A stretch of DNA of 30,300 nucleotides, from UHGV virus genome UHGV-1280366; one strand, given 5' to 3'. Positions within the stretch are counted from its first letter, which is position 1; each line of letters begins with the position of its first letter. The notes under the pieces are model-generated. The model was not told where the DNA came from and searched no databases. It was given only the letters and a program-made list of their open reading frames with translations. The position numbers were made by a program, and so were the translations under genes. This DNA comes from a virus. Below, in pieces: positions 1,224 to 26,203 of this stretch.

Positions 1224-4200
1224 TGCCGATATATGAACAGAATCCTAAAGAGTTGCTTGGCGAGGATATTCAGCAAATAGCAGCACCTGATGACAGTAAT
1301 TTCTATATGGAAACACCTTCTTTGCTTTCTGCTGTGAACCCATTTACCAGTGATCAACGCGTTCAAAGGTCTAGACAAGCAGCATTTCGTATAGATAACA
1401 CGCTGGGTAGCTTTATTGCCAGTGCTCCTTTCAGTCAGTTTGACAGGGTTGAAGGATATAACCCATTTGATAACGATGCAGCAGATATTAAAGGCTATGA
1501 AGATTTTGCAGATTCGTTTATCAACTCCGGTTCGCATGAAGAAACAATGGCAATTAAACATCGAATCGATAAGCAAAGAACAGATAGAGAATATCTATCT
1601 GAAATGGGTGGTGCTGGTACTATTTCAAGCTTAGCAATGGGAATGATAGACCCGGTTAATGTGGCTGCAATGTTCATCCCTGTAGGGGCGGTAGCGCGTG
1701 GAGGAAGTATTGCTGAGACGGCAGGGCGTTTTGCCCTAGCGAATGCTGCTGGTGGGGGAGTATCAGAAGCCGCATTACAGGCCACTCAGGAAGCTCGCTC
1801 ACCGATGGAGAGCGTATCGAACGTTGTTGTTGATGCTCTCGTTGGTGGGATCCTTGGTGCTGGTGCACAGCTACTTGCTGGACCTAGCGCGCGCGAGGCA
1901 GTGGTTAACTCAGTAGGTAATCATTTGCGAGGTATGGATTCTCCTCAAAGCATTGGTGCAGCTCAGGTTTTCAATACCACACTCGATCAGGAACAGCTCG
2001 CTGGACTTGGACTTGCTAACAAAACGTTGAGTGTCACTCCTGCTGGCCGCTTGGCTCAATCACCATCTCTTGTCTCCCGTCAGATTAACCAGCAGCTTGC
2101 CGAAAATAACTATTTCTTCGCCAAAAATGATGAGGGGTTGGCTACGTTTACGGCAGTCGAGACTAAGATTAAGCAATACGACGCCATGCTTTATAAGCAG
2201 ATGGAAGCCACTCGTGATGCTTACCAGCAGTACAGCAAATCTGTTAGCGCCCGCGGCGTGAAGAGGATGAGCTTTATTGATTTCAATGAAGCTGTTGGCA
2301 TGGCTATGCGCCGTGGTGATCAGAGTGATATTCCTGAGGTTTCACAAGCAGCCGCCAGAATCCGCCCCATTTTCGAGACCACAAAAGCCCGTATGCAGGA
2401 ACTGGGGATCCTTCCTGAGGATATCGATGTCGTGACGGCGAAAAGTTATCTTCCCCGCATTTATAAGTTCGATAAGATACTTTCCGACCGCACTGAATTC
2501 AGAGGGCGAATTGCCAACTGGATACAAGGGATTAGTGCCAAAGGTGCTGACAAAGCAGGTCAGCGAATTGAAAGGATAAATTCATTGCTAAAAACTGCAG
2601 AGGAATCGGCACCGCGCGCTGATGCTCTCGCTAGTGAAATCGCTGAAGCGGAGAAATGGTCTGGTAAAAAAATTCTACTTATGGAAGAACTGGATAAACG
2701 AAATAAGCTTATATCTCAGGAGACTGACACACAGGCGCGTCTTACAAGAATAGAAAAAGAGTTGGCCGAGACTTCATCAGAAAAACTTCAGGCAAGAATG
2801 ATGAAAGAAAGCTCTGACCTTAAAACACGCCTTGATGATATAGCGCAGGCAAAGAGTGAGCTTCCTGTCTATCAGCGCCATATGGAGTTGCTGGATAATC
2901 CACGGAAATATCGTTCTGAGCTTCGCCGACTGCAAAAACGGGCAAATTCAACCACAAGGCTGAATGCAAGCCGCGAACGAGCACTGAAGCAGATGGAGCC
3001 TCTATCCCGAGAGGAAGCAGAGGACGCTGCTGACGAGATCGTGAATAAAATAATAGGCGCACCTTCCGGGCTTGTACCAGCCGATATTATCCCAGAGAGA
3101 CTCGTTGGTCGGGCTGGTTTCACTAAAAGCAGAACGCTGCTTATTCCTGATGAGCGTATAGAAGATTTTCTTGAATCAGATGTTAACTACATCATGGAAA
3201 GTTATCTCCGGCAGGTGGCACCAGAAATTGAGCTGACTGCGCAGTTTGGCCGTAAAGATATGGGGGAGCAAATCCGTCAGGTTAGTGAGGAATATACCCG
3301 GCTAATAAAAGAGGCTAAAACACCTAAACGACGTGCAGTTCTTGAGAAGCAACGGGAGGCTGATATTAGGGATATTACGGCTATGCGTGATCGACTGCTT
3401 GGTACTTACGGTGCACCTCAAGATCCACGCAGTTTCTTTGTTCGTGCCGGGCGAGTTGCTAGGAATATTAACTTCCTCCGTTTGCTTGGTGGAATGACTG
3501 TCTCCGCTGCAACTGATCTGATGCGACCGATGATGCAGCATGGCCTGAGAAAATCTCTCGGACCAATGGTAAGCATGCTTAAAAATATGGACTCAGTGAA
3601 AATTGCAACCAGGGATTTGCGAGAAATGGCCGTTGGGCTTGATTATGTCCTGTCTACGCGTACAAAGGCTATAGCGGATCTTACTGACCCCTATAGCCGG
3701 AGAAGCGCCGCTGAGCGAGGTCTGAACTGGATGACGCAGAAATTCGGTAACTGGACGCTGATGAATCAGTGGAACAGCGCACTTAAATCATGGTCCGGGA
3801 TGATAGTGCAGTCGAGGATACTTGACGCGGCTCGCCAAGTTTCTGCTGGTGGCACGCTCTCCAAAAGTGAAATGCGGAAGATGGCACAGGTCGGCATCAA
3901 TGAAGATGTTCTGCGCCGAATCGGGGAGCAATTCGGGAAGCACGGAGAGGATATGGACGGGCTGTTAACCGGGCATAGTCATCTGTGGGATGACCGTTTC
4001 GCTAGAGAGATTTTCCAGTCTGCAGTGCTGAAAGATGTAGACTCAGTGATTGTAACGCCTGGCGTAGGTGATACACCGCTGTTTTTTAGTAAAGAAGGCT
4101 GGAAGATGATCACGCAGTTCAAAACGTTTATCTTCGCACAGCATAACAGGGTGCTAGTATCTGGTATCCAGCAGGGCGATGCTGCATTCTATCTTGGTGC

Positions 4201-4612
4201 GCTTGGCACGATTGCGCTTGGCTCAATGGTCTATATGATGAAACAGAAGTTAAGCGGTCGCGATATCGACTACAGCTGGAATAACCTTGTGAAAGAGGGG
4301 ATCGACCGGGGCGGAATGCTTGGCTGGCTCTCTGAGCCGCTGAATACCGTTGAGAACATAAGCGGCGGTAGGTTTGGTCTTGGCGCGATGTTTGGTGCGC
4401 CTCCGGTATCAAGGTTTCAGAGTCGTAATGCTATTGGTGCTTTACTTGGTCCTACCTTTGATCTTGGCGGTGATGCCGCGACGGTTGCGAATGGTGTACT
4501 TAACGGAGAATTTGACAGCCAGCAAACCCACGCGGTCCGTAAAATGCTACCTTTTCAGAACCTGTGGGCGATATCACCGTTACTAAATAAAGTTGAAGAG
4601 CAGATGAAATAG
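1223..4612 (+). CDS. large virion protein (1129 aa), putative DNA-ejection/internal virion protein
   Basis: 3.4-kb uninterrupted ORF; Gly/Ala-rich hydrophobic segment near residues 130-230, charged coiled-coil-like central region, hydrophobic C-terminal part. Last large gene of the structural module before the accessory island and tailspike. Family not recognised. Confidence 0.75.
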   Translation: MPIYEQNPKELLGEDIQQIAAPDDSNFYMETPSLLSAVNPFTSDQRVQRSRQAAFRIDNTLGSFIASAPFSQFDRVEGYNPFDNDAADIKGYEDFADSFINSGSHEETMAIKHRIDKQRTDREYLSEMGGAGTISSLAMGMIDPVNVAAMFIPVGAVARGGSIAETAGRFALANAAGGGVSEAALQATQEARSPMESVSNVVVDALVGGILGAGAQLLAGPSAREAVVNSVGNHLRGMDSPQSIGAAQVFNTTLDQEQLAGLGLANKTLSVTPAGRLAQSPSLVSRQINQQLAENNYFFAKNDEGLATFTAVETKIKQYDAMLYKQMEATRDAYQQYSKSVSARGVKRMSFIDFNEAVGMAMRRGDQSDIPEVSQAAARIRPIFETTKARMQELGILPEDIDVVTAKSYLPRIYKFDKILSDRTEFRGRIANWIQGISAKGADKAGQRIERINSLLKTAEESAPRADALASEIAEAEKWSGKKILLMEELDKRNKLISQETDTQARLTRIEKELAETSSEKLQARMMKESSDLKTRLDDIAQAKSELPVYQRHMELLDNPRKYRSELRRLQKRANSTTRLNASRERALKQMEPLSREEAEDAADEIVNKIIGAPSGLVPADIIPERLVGRAGFTKSRTLLIPDERIEDFLESDVNYIMESYLRQVAPEIELTAQFGRKDMGEQIRQVSEEYTRLIKEAKTPKRRAVLEKQREADIRDITAMRDRLLGTYGAPQDPRSFFVRAGRVARNINFLRLLGGMTVSAATDLMRPMMQHGLRKSLGPMVSMLKNMDSVKIATRDLREMAVGLDYVLSTRTKAIADLTDPYSRRSAAERGLNWMTQKFGNWTLMNQWNSALKSWSGMIVQSRILDAARQVSAGGTLSKSEMRKMAQVGINEDVLRRIGEQFGKHGEDMDGLLTGHSHLWDDRFAREIFQSAVLKDVDSVIVTPGVGDTPLFFSKEGWKMITQFKTFIFAQHNRVLVSGIQQGDAAFYLGALGTIALGSMVYMMKQKLSGRDIDYSWNNLVKEGIDRGGMLGWLSEPLNTVENISGGRFGLGAMFGAPPVSRFQSRNAIGALLGPTFDLGGDAATVANGVLNGEFDSQQTHAVRKMLPFQNLWAISPLLNKVEEQMK

Positions 4613-5053
4613 CTATTCACAATTAGTGATGGCGTATGTATCAAATATATTGCCATCACTAAATACATACCTATACTCAATCTCTCCGCCAAGGTGAATA
4701 AATGCTTTCATTTGCCTGTTGGAGCAAATGCTCGATTTTGAATAATTTCGCATTACACTCTTTAATTTATTTTCTAAGGTTACATCACCATTATAAACTT
4801 TTGATAAATAGCTGTTGTTGTAATTAAGATGCGCTACAACTAAGAGTTTGTTTAGTATTGCATTTATTGAAACAATAGACATATTATCATTCAATTTTAT
4901 GGGAAGTGACTTTCCTGCTTCTGATGCAATTTTGTTTGCATGTGCACACATATCCTCATTTATTAAATTCTTAAAACATATGTCGTTTGCAAACGAAAAA
5001 ATTGGTAGGATAAACAAAACGGTAGCTGTAATAGCGTGCATCGGCTTAATCAT
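4613..5053 (-). CDS. small hypothetical protein with predicted N-terminal signal peptide (MHAITATVLFILPIFSFA); moron-like
   Basis: ORF in a visibly AT-rich stretch (about 4620-5050) unlike the flanking phage genes; hydrophobic N-terminus ending in A-x-A-like site. Alternative start at 5041. Diverges from the next gene with almost no spacer. Confidence 0.45.
   Translation of the reverse strand: MIKPMHAITATVLFILPIFSFANDICFKNLINEDMCAHANKIASEAGKSLPIKLNDNMSIVSINAILNKLLVVAHLNYNNSYLSKVYNGDVTLENKLKSVMRNYSKSSICSNRQMKAFIHLGGEIEYRYVFSDGNIFDTYAITNCE
4623..4662. repeat. 11-bp perfect inverted repeat (ttagtgatggc / gccatcactaa) with 18-nt spacer
   Basis: Seen directly, at the convergent junction of the 1129-aa gene and the minus-strand gene 4613-5053; no flanking T-tract. 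Confidence 0.6.
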
Positions 5054-19429: not shown

Positions 19430-20080
19430 TTATGGAAGGTTTGCTAGTTTTGCATCGACAACTACGCCGATGATTTTGCAGTTTCCGTTGATCTCGATCA
19501 TCGGATATTGTGGGTTAAGTGGTTTTAGAAACTTCCTGCCTGCATCAATAACTAACTTCTTGAAAGTTGCCTCGTTTTCTCCTTCGAGCTTTGCAACTAC
19601 CAGTTTCCCGTTACGCGGCTCTACTTCAGGATCGACAAGTATTATCATTCCTTCAGGGATACTGAGACCGGCCGGAGCCGTCATTGAGTCTCCCTTCACG
19701 TCCAACCAAAACGAATCTTCTGAACAGTCTACGGTTGTATCGTACCAGTTATCTATTGCACGCTTATGATATGGTTCTACAGCTTCCATCCAGCATCCTG
19801 CGCTCACCCAGCTAATCAGAGGGAATGACCCTCTTGGATCATGCCTACTGTGATAGGCAATGTTTGAAAGACTTTCCTCTCCTTTCATCAGATAGTCAGG
19901 GGAACACTTCAACGCATTAGCCAGGGCGAGAAGATTCTCTCCATTTGGCTCTGTCTCAGAGCGTTCCCACTGAGATATGGCAACATTAGACACGCCGACC
20001 ATCTTTCCAAGTGCGGCCTGCCTGATCTTGAGTTCTTTTCTCCGAGCGCGAATGCGCTCTCCCATCAATTGAGTTTTCAT
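19430..20080 (-). CDS. c2: c2/CI repressor (HTH plus LexA-like S24 autopeptidase domain)
   Basis: Protein is near-identical to P22 c2 as recalled (MKTQLMGERIRARR...VVDAKLANLP); Ala-Gly cleavage site and Ser/Lys peptidase domain. Confidence 0.95.
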   Translation of the reverse strand: MKTQLMGERIRARRKELKIRQAALGKMVGVSNVAISQWERSETEPNGENLLALANALKCSPDYLMKGEESLSNIAYHSRHDPRGSFPLISWVSAGCWMEAVEPYHKRAIDNWYDTTVDCSEDSFWLDVKGDSMTAPAGLSIPEGMIILVDPEVEPRNGKLVVAKLEGENEATFKKLVIDAGRKFLKPLNPQYPMIEINGNCKIIGVVVDAKLANLP

Positions 20081-20351: not shown

Positions 20352-20397
20352 TTGCTCTTTAACAGTCATGGTCCTCATTCCCGCCGAAATGCGGGAA
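20352..20397 (+). promoter_or_regulatory. nutR (boxA TGCTCTTTAACA plus boxB hairpin TCCCGCCGAAATGCGGGA)
   Basis: Immediately downstream of the cro stop; same boxB as nutL. Confidence 0.7.
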
Positions 20398-20454
20398 TAC
20401 AACGCGCATAAGTTGATGCGCATAACTTCTTATTTGTTAAGGAAATACTTACAT

Positions 20455-20748
20455 ATGGTTCGTGCAAACAAACGCAACGAGGCTCTAAGAATCGAGAGTG
20501 CGTTGCTTAACAAAATCGCAATGCTTGGAACTGAGAAGACAGCGGAAGCTGTGGGAGTTGATAAGTCGCAGATCAGCAGGTGGAAGAGGGATTGGATTCC
20601 AAAGTTCTCAATGCTGCTTGCTGTTCTTGAATGGGGCGTCGTTGACGACGATATGGCTCGATTGGCACGACAAGTTGCTTCGATTCTCACCAATAAAAAA
20701 CGCCCGGCGGCAACCGAGCGTTCTGAACAAATCCAGATGGAGTTCTGA
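20455..20748 (+). CDS. cII: CII transcriptional activator
   Basis: [97 protein letters not shown] is essentially lambda CII as recalled; the track ORF from 20368 is an upstream extension across nutR. Confidence 0.9.
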
Positions 20749-20780: not shown

Positions 20781-20927
20781 ATGACAAAACAACTCAGTCC
20801 TTACCAGGACAAAATTCACAAACACATACTACGTGATCGCTTCCTGTCCAGCTTCAAGCAGCCTGGTCGATTCCGGGCTGAGTTGGAAAAAGTGAAGCTG
20901 ATGCAGAAGGAGAAAGGTCATGAGTAA
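20781..20927 (+). CDS. small ORF (48 aa) between cII and O, possibly P22 orf48-like
   Basis: ATG with AGGAG RBS; stop overlaps the O start region; not in the ORF track (under 60 aa). Confidence 0.4.
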
Positions 20928-21780
20928 TCTTGCAACCGTAACACATTTAAGGCCTTCACAACGGCCTGTGGAGCGTCGTGTGGCAGAAGTTGAAGATGGT
21001 TATACCCGTCTTGCAAATGCCCTGTATGAAGAGCTTATCGGCGCAGATTTAACGAAAAATCAGAGCAAGGTTGCCCACGCCATATGCCGTAAAACATACG
21101 GCTACGGTAAAAAGATGGATCGCATCTCTGATAGTCAGTTAGCTCAAATTACCAGGCTGCCAAGACAGAAGGTAAATAAGGCCAAGAATGAGCTTATCGC
21201 GATGAAGGTTATCCTTCGCGAAGGCCAGCAAATCGGGCCTAACAAGAACATCGAGGAATGGCAAATAGAAGGGTGTCACTACTCTGGTGATAATGTCACT
21301 GCATTGGTGACAAAAAGTGTCACCAAAACGGTGACAGCGCTGTCACCAAAACAGGGACACACAAAAGAAACTATTACAAAAGAAAAAAGAAATAATAAAA
21401 ACACTATGTCCGAAAGTGTTCGGACGGAGTGTGAAAAATCACATGACCGTCACGAAGAAACCGACAAGGCATTCGAGGAAATATTCTGGTGTGCAGGCAT
21501 GCGGAAAGCCGGGAAGAAAAACGCAGCTTCGGCATTCAGAACACAGTTCAGGGAATGGCGTAAAACTACCAGGGGTACGGCAAGAGAGTTTGCCACGATG
21601 CTGGCAGAAGACATCGCATGCAGGAATGGTAAGCAGTTCGGATTCGACAGGTTGTTACCATCGAGCTACCTGAACGGTCAACGCTGGAACGACGAGAAGC
21701 CAGAAACTATTCAACCACAATCCAAACCATCATCCGCAATCACCGTATCGAAAACTGGCTACGTGTTTTTCGACAGGTGA
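20920..21780 (+). CDS. O: replication initiator O-like protein with divergent C-terminal domain
   Basis: N-terminal 110 aa resemble lambda O ([14 protein letters not shown]...DLTKNQSKV...[18 protein letters not shown]...GPNKNIEEW); the gene contains the ori iterons; the C-terminal half is unlike the lambda P-interaction domain. Confidence 0.85.
21273..21400. repeat. origin of replication: iterons (GGTGACA / TGTCACC palindromic repeats) followed by AT-rich tract
   Basis: Repeated tgtcac/gtgaca units at 21273-21350 then an A-rich stretch 21361-21400, inside the O gene as in lambda ori. Confidence 0.65.
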
Positions 21781-21887
21781 ACCATGAAATCAAAAATCAA
21801 ATCGCTACTGGTCGCTGGTTATAACCACGGTTGGTTAAGTATTTCGTTTGTCGATTTCTGGTTTAAAAATCTCAATCTGAGGGAATC

Positions 21888-23768
21888 ATGACGCCAAGTG
21901 AACTCAGCGACCTGCTTTGGGCGCAGGTTGACAGGGTGGCTCCGCACCTGTTGCCAAACGGCAAGAAAGAGGGGCATGAGTGGGTTGCCGGTAACGTCAA
22001 CGGCGACAAGGGAAACAGCCTTAAGGTCAACCTTAGCGGCAAGAAAAAATGGGCTGATTTCGCTGAGGGAGACGGCGGTGACATGCTTGATTTATGGATG
22101 GCATGTCGTGGAATTAACCTGCATCAGGCTATGCAGGAAGCGAAAGCATTTCTCGGTATCAAGGATGACGATCACCATTTCGATGCCAGACGTGAGAAGA
22201 AATTCTCCAGACCTGACCGCAAGAAAATCGCCCGCTACGTTACCAGAACAGAATCCCATCTTGAGTACCTGCAATCGCGTGGCATATCTCCAGAAATCGT
22301 AAAGCGCTACGAGGTTGTCAGCGGCAAGGTGTGGAATGGAGAGCGAGAACTGGATGCTCTGGTGATTCCGTACAAACGCGATGGTGAGTTGTTGCAGGTC
22401 AAGCGAATCAGCACTGAGCGCCCGGACGGGAAGAAAGTCATTATGGCAGAAGGTGATTGCGAACCTTGTCTGTTCGGATGGCAGGCTCTGGACGCTGGCG
22501 TGAGGGCGGTTGTACTTTGCGAAGGCGAAATTGATTGTATGAGCTATGCGCAATACGGCATCTCGGCGTTATCCGTGCCGTTTGGTGGCGGGAAAGGCGC
22601 TAAGCAACAGTGGATTGAGTTTGAGTATCACAACCTCGACAGGTTTGAGGAAATATTCATCTCGATGGACGTTGATGATGTTGGTCGTGAAGCCGCAAGG
22701 GAAATCGCAAGCCGACTCGGTGAACATCGTTGCCGTCTTGTTACTCTGCCGTACAAAGACATCAACGAATGCCTGATGAACGGTGTTACCGAGGATGAAA
22801 TCTGGCAGTACATCGGCACGGCATCCTACTTCGATCCTGAAGAACTCTACAGCGCGCGAGAGTTTTACCAGGACACTATCAACGCTTTCTACGGCAAGCA
22901 GCAGTATCTGTTTAATCCACCGTGGGAATCTCTGGCAGATAAATTCCAGTTCCGTGAGGCCGAGTTGACGCTGGTCAATGGTGTGAACGGTCACGGAAAA
23001 ACGGAGGTTGTCGGGCATATGGCACTTGAGGCAATGCGTCAGGGGGTGAAGACGTGCATCGCGTCACTTGAGCTGAAGCCTGGTATTCTCCTTAAGCGCC
23101 TTACCCGTCAGGCGACGTGCTGCAAGATGCCGCCAGTGCTGGAAATTGACTCTGCATTTAAATTTTATGACGAAAGACTTTGGGTGTTTGGCCTGACCGG
23201 AACGGCGAAAGCCGACAGGCTGATCGAAATATTCGACTACGCTCGCCGCCGATACGGGATCCAGTTATTCATCATCGACAGCCTGATGAAATGTGGCATA
23301 GGCGACGATGACTATAACGGGCAGAAGGCGTTTGTTGACTCGATTTGCGACTTCAAAAACAAAACAAACTCCCACGTCATTCTCGTTACTCACTCGCGAA
23401 AAGGAGACAGCGAAGAAAAACCAACCGGGAAAATGGACGTAAAAGGCTCTGGAGCGATAACAGACCTGACAGACAACCTTTTCATCATCTGGCGTAACAA
23501 GGCTCGCGAGAGAGCGTTACAGAGAGTTCAGAGTGGTGAAAAGATGTCAGAGAAGGACGAACAGCTACTGGCATCTCCGGCATCTGTTTTGATGCTTGAA
23601 AAACAACGTAACGGCGAAGGTTGGGAAGGTGGTGTCCCGTTGTTCCTTGACGAGCAATCGCACCAGTTCCTGCAACTTGAATCAGGATCGCCATATAGCT
23701 ACATCGCCAATATGCCGAAATCGGAATATGACGAGTCGTGGCGACAGGAAAACGTGACGGAGTATTAA
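21888..23768 (+). CDS. bifunctional DNA primase (TOPRIM) / DnaB-family helicase
   Basis: TOPRIM-like motif (VVLCEGEIDCMS), Walker A GVNGHGKT and Walker B LFIIDSL; the N-terminal region resembles a primase zinc-binding domain but lacks the cysteines. Confidence 0.8.
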   Translation: MTPSELSDLLWAQVDRVAPHLLPNGKKEGHEWVAGNVNGDKGNSLKVNLSGKKKWADFAEGDGGDMLDLWMACRGINLHQAMQEAKAFLGIKDDDHHFDARREKKFSRPDRKKIARYVTRTESHLEYLQSRGISPEIVKRYEVVSGKVWNGERELDALVIPYKRDGELLQVKRISTERPDGKKVIMAEGDCEPCLFGWQALDAGVRAVVLCEGEIDCMSYAQYGISALSVPFGGGKGAKQQWIEFEYHNLDRFEEIFISMDVDDVGREAAREIASRLGEHRCRLVTLPYKDINECLMNGVTEDEIWQYIGTASYFDPEELYSAREFYQDTINAFYGKQQYLFNPPWESLADKFQFREAELTLVNGVNGHGKTEVVGHMALEAMRQGVKTCIASLELKPGILLKRLTRQATCCKMPPVLEIDSAFKFYDERLWVFGLTGTAKADRLIEIFDYARRRYGIQLFIIDSLMKCGIGDDDYNGQKAFVDSICDFKNKTNSHVILVTHSRKGDSEEKPTGKMDVKGSGAITDLTDNLFIIWRNKARERALQRVQSGEKMSEKDEQLLASPASVLMLEKQRNGEGWEGGVPLFLDEQSHQFLQLESGSPYSYIANMPKSEYDESWRQENVTEY

Positions 23769-23797: not shown

Positions 23798-23830
23798 AGG
23801 CCTGCTGGTAATCGCAGGCCTTTTTATTTT
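23798..23830 (+). terminator. rho-independent terminator (tR2-like) before the nin region
   Basis: AGGCCTGC-tggtaatc-GCAGGCCT stem followed by TTTTTATTTT. Confidence 0.65.
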
Positions 23831-24810: not shown

Positions 24811-24983
24811 GACGACAGCGACGAAGTTTCACCGACATCATCTGCGAAAACTGCAAATACCTTCCAACGAAGCGCTCCAGAAATAAACCCAAGCCAATCC
24901 CAAAAGAATCTGACGTAAAAACCTTCAACTACACGGCTCACCTGTGGGATATCCGGTGGCTAAGACATCGTGCGAGGAAATGA
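24807..24983 (+). CDS. ninE: NinE
   Basis: [53 protein letters not shown] matches lambda NinE as recalled; ATGA overlap with dam. Confidence 0.8.
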
Positions 24984-25387
24984 CAATGCTTTTAATTCAA
25001 CCTGGATTTGGCCTTAGCATCAAAAAAGGGCACATGTTTGGCGAGAAAGAGTCTCAACGAAAAATGGTGTCGATACAGTTGCCATTTATCAGTATTTGTT
25101 GGCTAAACAGGGAGGCAACAAATTATTGGTATACATGCGCCAGAGCAGCATTTAACGACCCTGACTGGTTTGTGAATAACCACCACGCAGTTCGTCAGGC
25201 AAAGAGAAAGGCCAATACGACATACATGAAGGCGTATCGAAAAGCATGGAAAGAACACCGGGATCGATACCAGCAAGACATGGAAAAGCTTGAATCAGAA
25301 AACATGGAATTAAGACGAAAGCTTGGTGAAGCAAAACGAGACATTGATGCTTACAAGCGACTTTTTAATGGTGAAAGCCATGCTTAG
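24980..25387 (+). CDS. hypothetical nin-region protein (NinX-like by position)
   Basis: ORF between ninE and ninF; track start is GTG, ATG 24980/24986 with GAGGAA RBS; its 3' part lies inside the duplicated unit. Confidence 0.5.
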
Positions 25388-25556
25388 CCCATCCCAATCC
25401 CTTCAATACCAGAAAGAAAGCGTCGAGCGGGCTTTAACGTGCGCTAACTGCGGTCAGAAGCTGCATGTGCTGGAAGTTCACGTGTGTGAGCACTGCTGCG
25501 CAGAACTGATGAGCGATCCGAATAGCTCAATGTACGAGGAAGAAGACGATGAGTGA
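25380..25556 (+). CDS. ninF: NinF (copy 1)
   Basis: [58 protein letters not shown] matches lambda NinF as recalled. Confidence 0.8.
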   Translation: MLSPSQSLQYQKESVERALTCANCGQKLHVLEVHVCEHCCAELMSDPNSSMYEEEDDE

Positions 25557-25671
25557 TTACCTGAAATGGTATCTCTGCCACCGCTGGTTAATTAAGTTTG
25601 CTGTAAAAGACTGGATGACAGCGGATGCCAACAAGCTTAAGCAAAGAGAAAGGCCAATACGACATACATGA
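25549..25671 (+). pseudogene. truncated chimeric copy of the 70-aa gene created by the duplication junction (MSDYLK...[14 protein letters not shown])
   Basis: Same start context as 25991-26203 but the frame runs across the junction into a new stop after 40 codons. Confidence 0.45.
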
Positions 25672-25821
25672 AGGCGTATCGAAAAGCATGGAAAGAACAC
25701 CGGGATCGATACCAGCAAGACATGGAAAAGCTTGAATCAGAAAACATGGAATTAAGACGAAAGCTTGGTGAAGCAAAACGAGACATTGATGCTTACAAGC
25801 GACTTTTTAATGGTGAAAGCC

Positions 25822-25998
25822 ATGCTTAGCCCATCCCAATCCCTTCAATACCAGAAAGAAAGCGTCGAGCGGGCTTTAACGTGCGCTAACTGCGGTCAGA
25901 AGCTGCATGTGCTGGAAGTTCACGTGTGTGAGCACTGCTGCGCAGAACTGATGAGCGATCCGAATAGCTCAATGTACGAGGAAGAAGACGATGAGTGA
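25822..25998 (+). CDS. ninF: NinF (copy 2, identical duplicate)
   Basis: Identical sequence to 25380-25556, shifted by 442 bp. Confidence 0.75.
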   Translation: MLSPSQSLQYQKESVERALTCANCGQKLHVLEVHVCEHCCAELMSDPNSSMYEEEDDE

Positions 25999-26203
25999 TT
26001 ACCTGAAATGGTATCTCTGCCACCGCTGGTTAATTAAGTTTGCTGTAAAAGACTGGATGACAGCGGATGCCAACAAGCTTAAGCAAAGAAAAGACTATTA
26101 CTACGCCAGAATGAAGGAAAACTACTGCTCAATTCGCACTCGCATATTTATTAAAAAAGACCTTCAGTCAATTCTTCAATTGCGAGGGAAGGTAAATGGC
26201 TAA
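25991..26203 (+). CDS. hypothetical nin-region protein (70 aa)
   Basis: ORF with ATG overlapping the ninF stop (ATGAGTGA); intact only in the second copy. Confidence 0.5.
   Translation: MSDYLKWYLCHRWLIKFAVKDWMTADANKLKQRKDYYYARMKENYCSIRTRIFIKKDLQSILQLRGKVNG

Follow-up and report, generated by a model that had tools for sequence, protein, structure and literature searches.

The window analysed here, a 30.3-kb stretch of the virus genome UHGV-1280366, carries a replication cassette. A gene for an O-type replication initiator with an internal origin (20920..21780, exact coordinates, 286 aa) is followed by a conserved 35-aa open reading frame (21784..21891) and by a gene for a predicted bifunctional primase-helicase of the T7-gp4/Twinkle type (21888..23768, 626 aa; Pfam, PHROG, phmmer and Foldseek). 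All coding features given below lie on the + strand. The initial annotation had given the same outer limits (20920-23768) and had identified both proteins correctly, but had missed the conserved gene between them. Its stop codon overlaps the start of the primase-helicase gene (ATGA). Phages LMessi and Fraca have a 35-aa homologue at this place even though their primase-helicase is only 61% identical, and ES18 gp60, epsilon34 gp51 and g341c 46 are positional counterparts. The family-profile searches matched the 35-aa product to no family. Between the primase-helicase gene and ninB lies a terminator-like hairpin with a T-run (23798..23821, + strand), called from a consensus scan only. Among public clusters, 1,106 O proteins are near-identical to the one described here, and the cluster that the 626-aa protein matches at 99% identity has 5,632 members.

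The N-terminal domain of the initiator is of the lambda type, as had been proposed. Residues 20-114 match Pfam Phage_rep_O (E = 1.3e-37; 128.6 bits, cut-off 28.7), TIGR01610 (phage_O_Nterm) is matched at 105.5 bits (cut-off 45.5), and BLASTP aligns aa 1-157 with lambda O at 49% identity. The window O has the winged-helix origin-binding domain of the lambda O family and, also as in that family, the origin lies inside the initiator gene, where iterons with inverted symmetry precede an A/T-rich block. The predicted O-internal origin was confirmed as four 19-bp iterons, TGTCAC-N7-GTGACA, at 21274-21292, 21294-21312, 21318-21336 and 21341-21359 (span 21274..21359). Their spacing of 20/24/23 bp is that of the annotated lambda iterons (39034/39054/39078/39101), and elsewhere in the window the pattern has a single weak match with 2 mismatches. 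The lambda iteron sequence (ATCCCTC...GAGGGA) is different, so the DNA-binding specificity of the window O would differ as well. The A/T-rich block (21360..21403, 18% G+C) is presumed to be the DNA-unwinding element from its sequence and its near-identity to the A/T-rich region of the lambda origin. On the right side of the origin an inverted-repeat search identified an imperfect palindrome with 14-nt arms and a 4-nt gap (21401..21432), which we take to occupy the position of the lambda ori palindrome. The two phages thus share the fold and family of the initiator N-domain, an O-internal origin, four equally spaced iterons, a near-identical A/T-rich block and the gene order cII, O, partner, nin.

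Beyond aa 157 BLASTP detected no similarity between the window O and lambda O, the PHROG families matched by the two C-termini show zero overlap, and hhalign of the window C-terminal half against the lambda O C-terminus gave E = 0.57. By these three comparisons the lambda-type, P-binding C-terminal domain is absent. The C-terminal half had been described as unrelated to lambda O, and an alignment to canonical lambda O, which would contradict that description, was looked for and did not occur. The half consists of a helical core delimited by alignments (aa ~176-262; 21445..21705), with a motif beginning D-AFE-IFW-AGMRK, and a tail formed by the last 17-18 residues (21724..21777), a candidate docking peptide on the basis of its conservation. 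The core matches PHROGs 33384, 270, 9474 and 9327, the last of which is labelled 'primosomal protein', and matches no Pfam family. Within the tail T275, S277, G280 and V282 are at least 90% conserved, and the linker before it varies. Among O proteins that are 53-84% identical the tail is kept at the protein level, while the preceding 12 residues vary freely; an identical tail is present in initiators of the SI8 and S107 types, from which the core is missing. The DNA of the tail also contains the ribosome-binding region of the 35-aa ORF.

The 626-aa protein belongs to PHROG 239, 'DNA primase/helicase' (E = 2e-171). By sequence it is matched by T7 gp4 (5ikn/6n7i; phmmer, E ~1e-23) and by Twinkle (6e-14), and these two were also the top structures in Foldseek searches with its predicted structure. 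A structural prediction devoid of a primase or helicase fold would have spoken against the assignment, and such a result was not obtained. The two AlphaFold2 models had only moderate overall confidence (pTM 0.48 and 0.35). A Toprim catalytic core of a primase occupies aa 207-298 (22506..22781; Toprim_2 at aa 209-296, E = 3e-12). Its residues E212, D261, D263 and D291 align to E157, D207, D209 and D237 of T7 gp4 and are retained in 77-78 of 78 full-length relatives that are only ~35-55% identical over the N-terminal 190 aa. An SF4 (DnaB/RecA-like) helicase domain follows at aa 355-594 (22950..23669; AAA_25/DnaB_C and the T7 alignment), in which K371, E395, D464 and H502 align to T7 K318, E343, D424 and H465. 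R574 belongs to an invariant EKQRNG motif and probably corresponds to T7 R522 in the KCRF motif, a pairing obtained by residue counting in the T7 alignment and not by direct alignment. K519 was considered as a replacement of the arginine finger and rejected, as the residue count pairs it with T7 R487 and leaves no anomaly. The protein has these features of the gp4/Twinkle class: Toprim acidic residues, SF4 Walker A and B motifs, a catalytic glutamate, a histidine sensor and a likely arginine finger. The TOPRIM and DnaB-like helicase motifs noticed in the initial annotation were recovered by Pfam, PHROG and the aligned residues. Its view that a primase-helicase stands in place of lambda P also held: BLASTP found no similarity between the 626-aa protein and lambda P, and the gene after O does not match PF06992 (Phage_lambda_P), a profile that lambda P itself matches at E = 6e-62.

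The N-terminus of the primase-helicase (aa 1-95; 21888..22172) is a homologue of the DnaG-type zinc ribbon, detected by TIGR01391, Pfam, hhalign and the AlphaFold2 model, and it has none of the Cys/His ligands. TIGR01391 (NCBIfam dnaG) aligns over positions 27-155 to aa 26-143 (E = 2e-9); its full-length score, 36.8 bits where the cut-off is 283.6, places the protein outside the DnaG equivalogs. The DnaB-binding C-terminal domain of DnaG is absent, and the helicase domain stands there instead. Pfam Zn_ribbon_DnaG (PF01807) gave weak matches in 9 of 33 family members (best E = 2.9e-4), and hhalign against E. coli DnaG aa 1-110 gave E = 5.5e-4. In this last alignment G35, N38, D57 and E60 stand at DnaG C40, H43, C61 and C64; L22 and G25, an earlier candidate for the first lost pair, were replaced by G35 and N38 on this ground. 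None of 90 diverged full-length relatives has a Cys or His at the four columns. In fold and sequence the domain is homologous to the CHC2 ribbon of DnaG-type primases but lacks its zinc ligands. The missing ligands had been noted initially and interpreted as a loss in this protein; the absence is real, but it is a trait common to the whole protein family. The Cys4 zinc-binding domain of gp4 was matched by hhalign at E = 0.23 only, with no Cys/His in conserved columns, and a profile of the ribbon-like domain retrieved chance matches only from PDB sequences. The predicted domain (pLDDT 80-90) has five short strands and two helices, and Foldseek aligned 368 columns to the zinc-binding and RNA-polymerase domains of Aquifex DnaG (2au3). 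A search with the N-terminal 190 residues gives about 2,700 cluster representatives at E <= 0.001. The literature searched for zinc-free prophage primases, or for an intein in Stx phages, contained no specific earlier report.

T7 gp4 requires its zinc domain for template-directed priming and makes no template-directed primers when the domain is removed. With all zinc ligands missing, priming by the window protein is therefore not assured. It might be a helicase only, with a primase half inactivated by loss of the metal site and with primers supplied by host DnaG. All four ligand positions are replaced, as they are throughout the 90 relatives, and metazoan Twinkle lacks the ligand cysteines and is not known to have primase activity. 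The helicase gp12 of P22 works together with DnaG, according to Wickner (1984) as cited in PMC8022706. Against a dead primase stand the Toprim metal-binding residues, kept in nearly every one of the 78 relatives. The ribbon-like domain is itself strongly conserved, with L21, S44, G51, D57 and L69 invariant, which argues for its continued use. Metazoan Twinkle differs in this respect, having lost its Toprim residues too. We consider a helicase without primase activity rather unlikely, and a primase-helicase whose zinc-free ribbon would probably still be the template-contacting module of the primase is the reading that we carry forward.

The cassette is already catalogued, annotated and described in print, and the window does not represent a new kind of system. 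Sf101, mEp043 and vB_EcoP-720R6 match the window at 98.3-98.7% DNA identity, with nothing substantial differing, over a region that runs from the DUF2740 ORF to ninB and includes O, the small 35-aa ORF and the primase-helicase gene; SEN22 is 91.6% identical over this region. In modules of the Sf101 type GenBank annotates the first protein as 'replication protein O' and the second as 'DNA primase/helicase' or as 'toprim domain-containing protein'. ES18 (gp59-gp60-gp61), epsilon34 and g341c share the C-terminal half of O (94-96% aa identity), the small ORF and the primase-helicase (~94%), but the N-domain and iterons of ES18 and epsilon34 are of lambda's own type (94% to lambda O aa 17-148); the window N-domain is 49% identical and its iterons have another specificity. 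Casjens and colleagues have described this module type as an O homologue with a primase-helicase that stands in for a DnaB-like helicase (PMC10307801, PMC2629481). The Eru5 unit of the Shiga-toxin phages Stx2a_F403 (the Eru5 reference phage), Stx2a_F451, phi24B and Min27 is 97% identical in DNA from window position 21396 on, which covers the C-terminal half of O and the primase-helicase. Its initiator has an HTH_36 N-domain where the window has Phage_rep_O, and its helicases carry a LAGLIDADG intein in the Walker A loop that is absent from the window allele.

More distant systems each share a part of this arrangement. Lambda has an unrelated O C-terminal half followed by P and borrows host DnaB and DnaG, whereas the window module encodes its own helicase-primase. 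Genes 18 and 12 of P22 likewise specify an O-type initiator with internal iterons and, instead of a loader, a replicative helicase of the phage's own, but gp12 is of the DnaB type, has no primase domain and works with host DnaG; the window helicase is of the gp4 type and forms a single protein with a Toprim primase. T7 gp4 and Twinkle have the same domain order (ribbon, RNA-polymerase/Toprim, linker, SF4 helicase) and the same catalytic residues. The T7 alignment is only ~26% identical, begins near aa 110-190 and thus excludes the ribbon, which is DnaG-like (CHC2 type) without metal ligands in the window and of the Cys4 type in T7. T7 is not known to use an origin-binding initiator.

Comparison of mosaic genomes revealed that the downstream partner, P or primase-helicase, tracks the type of the O C-terminus. 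Two junctions were located. The first lies at ~21392-21396 within the A/T-rich block, where the match to PhiR12 stops (21392) and the matches to the Stx/Eru5 phages start (21396); the second is at 21721-21727, at the start of the O tail. Both are sharply defined and are seen again in independent lineages. PhiR12_1 has the N-terminus and iterons of the window (99.6% identical up to position 21392) joined to the C-terminus of lambda O (100% identical), and P follows. Conversely, three N-terminal domains are joined to the window-type C-terminus and followed by the primase-helicase: the window type, the lambda type (8 IMG/VR loci, ES18/epsilon34) and HTH_36 (Stx2a_F451/phi24B/Min27). A scan of IMG/VR by alignment of the O C-terminus yielded 80 loci, and in 79 of the 79 with enough sequence the primase-helicase lies ~110 bp downstream; these relatives are all at least 95% identical, and the scan informs on linkage, not on diversity, which was sampled from GenBank phage records. 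Among the loci examined, none had a lambda-type O C-terminus beside a window-type helicase or a window-type C-terminus beside P.

The second junction narrows the linked segment. Eight Salmonella phages have a different sequence in place of the core, and their homology to the window begins only 17 codons before the initiator stop, so that these phages keep the primase-helicase and the last 17 initiator residues. Pseudomonas phages 5399 and BR200a have primase-helicases that are 70% identical and initiators alike only in the last ~75 residues. Judging from these alignments, the last 17 residues are the only part of the initiator that always accompanies the primase-helicase. The core itself is found with other partners: distant copies adjoin a DnaC-like loader (Skulduggery) or small non-helicase proteins (Vibrio D59, PVA1). 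A P-like protein after the D59 and PVA1 initiators was considered and dropped (Pfam E = 0.063 in PVA1, no match in D59). Primase-helicase relatives at 40-60% identity occur with initiators that lack the helical core. O and primase-helicase from the same genomes have diverged to a similar degree (81% and 83% identity in Pseudescherichia vulneris, 69% and 76% in Pantoea sp. FN060301, ~50% and 61% in Fraca). The swaps support the initial suggestion that the O C-terminus matches its replication partner and sharpen it toward the tail; the part that did not survive concerns the core, which is not partner-specific. We infer a contact between O and the primase-helicase from linkage alone, and adjacent genes are co-inherited anyway.

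We propose that this is a replication cassette of a P22/lambda-like temperate phage in which O and its origin work with a phage-encoded primase-helicase recruited by the C-terminal region of O, a reading that we regard as probable. The literature searched reports no experiment on this module. The cassette, located after cII, would be transcribed rightward from the cro-side promoter. Dimers of O would occupy the four iterons and deform the A/T-rich block, in the manner of the lambda O-some. Where the lambda O C-domain captures P-DnaB, the C-terminal region of O, chiefly its last 17 residues, would here recruit the phage ring helicase-primase, which would unwind the origin and synthesize RNA primers for host DNA polymerase III. 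Initiation would be independent of host DnaB and DnaC, and probably of DnaG, and would involve no DnaK/DnaJ/GrpE step to free P.

The two proteins might also never touch: their linkage would then come from the genes lying side by side and from recombination within short stretches of common sequence, and the helicase would load itself on DNA opened by O or be guided by the 35-aa peptide. Rings of the T7 gp4 type load on single-stranded DNA without a loader, the O core has other partners elsewhere, distant helicase relatives are paired with unrelated initiators, and the tail DNA also includes the ribosome-binding region for the next ORF. We nevertheless judge such independence unlikely: tail conservation at the protein level next to 12 freely varying residues, the two sharp and recurrent boundaries, the same tail-only sharing in the Pseudomonas phages and the lack of mismatched pairs in the loci examined all speak against it. 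It is very unlikely that the O core recruits a host factor such as DnaB or a primosome protein, leaving the primase-helicase to later fork progression or rolling-circle replication rather than to initiation at the origin, for although the core is also present in initiators accompanied by a DnaC-like loader alone or by no helicase gene, matches the 'primosomal protein' PHROG 9327, and has a parallel in the ~11% of lambdoid phages that encode an O homologue alone (PMC12315714), it is dispensable in the eight Salmonella phages that replaced it while keeping the helicase, and no motif for binding a host factor was identified.

Two refinements emerge from the analysis: the 17-residue tail as the part of the initiator that stays linked to the helicase, and, throughout the family, a zinc-free ribbon of the DnaG type beside an intact Toprim site. 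From these we tentatively draw a broader possibility, which may not hold, that in a large family of prophage primase-helicases a DnaG-type ribbon folds and works without zinc, and that the helicase is brought to the origin without a loader by the extreme C-terminal peptide of whatever initiator stands before it, a portable docking tag held to the helicase gene by recombination. The cassette is widespread and is part of a recognised replication type, Eru5, in some Shiga-toxin phages. If it is independent of host DnaB, DnaC, DnaG and the DnaK chaperones, its control would depart from the lambda scheme that is generally taken as the model for such prophages, and this difference would bear on prophage induction in Stx phages.

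Gene order and Pfam matches identified the window as the early region of a P22/lambda-like temperate phage, with cI (19430-20080, minus strand), cro, cII, a 48-aa DUF2740 ORF, O, the primase-helicase gene, ninB, and a Dam-type methylase gene. The O gene (20920-21780, 286 aa) and the primase-helicase gene (21888-23768, 626 aa) lie exactly where the initial annotation had placed them. The cII ORF (20368-20748) was mechanically listed as 126 aa; Pfam CII spans aa 30-120 only, and the true start is probably an internal Met. A strong hairpin with a T-run lies on the opposite strand inside the cII 3' end (20724-20697, minus strand), where lambda carries its oop terminator. The DUF2740 ORF between cII and O (20781-20927) is labelled "tail protein" in PHROG 1913 and RefSeq records, very likely a propagated mis-annotation, because the ORF sits in the early-right operon. 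In the nin region a 442-bp unit is present in tandem (25199-26093, 2.0 copies, 99% identical), doubling a 77-aa Cys-rich ORF (25323-25556 = 25765-25998) and repeating the 3' part of a 147-aa ORF (24944-25387).

By sequence comparison, the N-terminal part of O was classified as a bona fide lambda-O domain. It matched PF04492 (128.6 bits vs. a cut-off of 28.7) and TIGR01610 (105.5 vs. 45.5), and aa 1-157 are 49% identical to lambda O. Four 19-bp iterons (TGTCAC-N7-GTGACA) are located inside the gene at 21274, 21294, 21318, and 21341; elsewhere in the 30.3 kb the motif gave one weak match, with 1.15 expected by chance. The iterons are spaced (20/24/23 bp) identically to those annotated in lambda, whereas their sequence differs, and specificity is therefore different. 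Directly after them follow an A/T-rich block (21360-21403, 18% G+C), almost base-for-base that of lambda, and a palindrome (21401-21432). The ori DNA encodes the O linker (aa 117-175), predicted to be disordered in the structure model. The claim of a lambda-type N-domain with iterons and ori inside the gene was thus confirmed.

The C-terminal half of O had been described as unrelated to that of lambda O, and this held. BLASTP revealed no similarity to lambda O past aa 157, hhalign of the two C-termini gave E = 0.57, and the PHROG families matched by the window C-terminus (33384, 270, 9474, 9327) showed no overlap with those matched by the lambda C-terminus (277, 2357, 391, 2514, 9773, 4880). 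Neither C-terminus matched a Pfam family. In the O model, aa 179-252 form a helical bundle of high confidence (pLDDT 82-92), whereas the tail is of low confidence.

The gene after O encodes, as annotated, a primase-helicase, and the protein is a member of the T7 gp4/Twinkle family. It contains Toprim_2 (aa 209-296) and AAA_25/DnaB_C (aa 355-594) domains, matched PHROG 239 "DNA primase/helicase" (E 2e-171), and retrieved T7 gp4 (E ~1e-23) and Twinkle (6e-14) in phmmer searches of PDB sequences. Both structures also ranked top in Foldseek searches with the AF2 model, where 368 columns aligned to the zinc-binding and RNA-polymerase domains of Aquifex DnaG. No similarity to lambda P was found. Toprim residues E212, D261, D263, and D291 aligned to T7 gp4 E157, D207, D209, and D237, and helicase residues K371, E395, D464, and H502 to K318, E343, D424, and H465; each of the eight is retained by 75 or more of the 78 diverged relatives. 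Close relatives show no variation in the arginine-finger motif EKQRNG (R574). The last ~25 residues (23694-23765) are acidic/aromatic (Y-x2-ANMP-x-SEYDE-x-W-x3-NVTEY), conserved in close but not in distant relatives, and resemble the acidic, Phe-ended tail by which T7 gp4 binds its polymerase. A terminator-like hairpin (23798-23821, plus strand) follows immediately 3' of the gene. The allele of phage Stx2a_F451 (gp36, 2001-4907 in comparison record L091) is 968 aa long, and its Walker A loop is interrupted directly behind GHGK, at the equivalent of window codon 371/372 (about 22998-23003), by an intein of ~342 aa (Hint plus LAGLIDADG homing endonuclease). Judged by match length, the phi24B and Min27 alleles have the intein too; it is absent from the window allele.

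The first 95 residues were assigned as a homologue of the DnaG CHC2 ribbon: aa 26-143 aligned collinearly to NCBIfam dnaG (E 2e-9), Pfam Zn_ribbon_DnaG matched 9 of 33 family members (best E 2.9e-4), and hhalign against E. coli DnaG gave E = 5.5e-4. The loss of zinc ligands was correctly noted, with G35, N38, D57, and E60 occupying the hhalign positions of DnaG C40, H43, C61, and C64. A full-library search with aa 1-190 yielded 2,740 cluster representatives. Among 90 full-length relatives (33-55% identical over aa 1-190) none had Cys/His at the conserved ribbon columns, so ligand loss is a family trait rather than local decay; D57 is nearly invariant (89/91). Since the Toprim site is intact, the protein is likely to have priming activity.

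Between the two genes lies a 35-aa ORF (21784-21891), missed by the initial annotation, whose stop codon overlaps the start of the following gene (ATGA) and which is apparently translationally coupled to the primase-helicase. A 35-aa homologue (MKxxLKRLLVAGYNRG...), conserved at the protein level, is located at the equivalent position in LMessi and Fraca phages, whose primase-helicases are only 61% identical to that of the window; ES18 gp60 and epsilon34 gp51 are also found there. No family could be assigned to its product.

The initial annotation had further proposed that the O C-terminus is matched to the primase-helicase. Natural swaps, linkage, and similar divergence of O and primase-helicase in the same genomes support this idea, by the kind of argument classically used for the lambda O-P pair. 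Phage PhiR12_1 is 99.6% identical to the window, N-domain and iterons included, up to 21392; beyond this junction (21392-21396, the first mosaic junction, within the ori A/T-rich block) its O C-terminus is 100% identical to that of lambda and is followed by P and Ren. The window-type C-terminus was found behind three N-domains (window type, lambda type, and HTH_36), each time with the primase-helicase next. Among 80 IMG/VR loci with this C-terminus, the primase-helicase lies ~110 bp downstream in 79/79 with enough sequence.

The helical core of the C-terminal half (aa ~176-262) is not confined to this partner. In Vibrio and Pseudomonas phages, copies 31-44% identical are followed either by a DnaC-like loader, in Skulduggery, or by small non-helicase proteins, in D59 and PVA1, and primase-helicase relatives at 40-60% identity have upstream initiators without it. 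The strongest case is provided by eight Salmonella phages (SI8, SF6, SI5, SF10, Si3, S107, S135, S137), in which the primase-helicase is 94% identical (protein) and the shared stretch ~96-97% identical (DNA), and the initiator combines an HTH_36 N-domain with a different middle domain. Similarity to the window sets in at 21721-21727, just 17 codons ahead of the initiator stop, and these initiators share the 17-residue ending of window O. This tail is conserved among O proteins 53-84% identical, in which the dozen preceding residues vary. The main rival explanation is that adjacency alone accounts for this linkage of tail and helicase. A parallel comes from Pseudomonas phages 5399 and BR200a. 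Their primase-helicases belong to this family and are 70% identical, and their initiators (2105-3004 and 1898-3004 in their records, L088 and L090) are alike only in the last ~75 residues and otherwise unrelated; the common motif is YPF-x2-PRGY-x2-E-x-HEFWH...TVLS-x2-THD. On this basis, we propose the extreme C-terminal peptide of O as a candidate helicase-coupling element. The odds of a direct tail-helicase contact are slightly better than even.

Starting from the observed parts and their motifs, O would bind the iterons and open the A/T-rich block. Recruitment of the phage helicase-primase would fall to the C-terminal region of O, mainly the tail, and the enzyme would unwind and prime for host Pol III. 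Initiation would proceed without P, DnaB, or DnaC, and probably without DnaG, and chaperone-driven release would not be needed. We consider this overall reading of the module fairly probable.

Phages Sf101, mEp043, and vB_EcoP-720R6 carry the entire cassette at 98.3-98.7% identity, annotated as replication protein O and DNA primase/helicase. Stx phages phi24B, Min27, and Stx2a_F403/F451 are 97% identical from 21396 onward, and Stx2a_F403 is the reference phage of the Eru5 replication type (PMC8951638). ES18, epsilon34, and g341c share the O C-terminus and primase-helicase but have a lambda-type N-domain. Published accounts (PMC10307801, PMC2629481) treat a module of this type as an O homologue with a primase-helicase. 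Window O matches a public cluster of 1,106 sequences at 100% identity, and the primase-helicase one of 5,632 at 99%; no experimental study of the module was found in the searched literature. The finding is real, its main lines were correctly read, and it is already known; the small, bench-testable additions are the mapping of the tail, the family-wide zinc-free ribbon, and the 35-aa gene.
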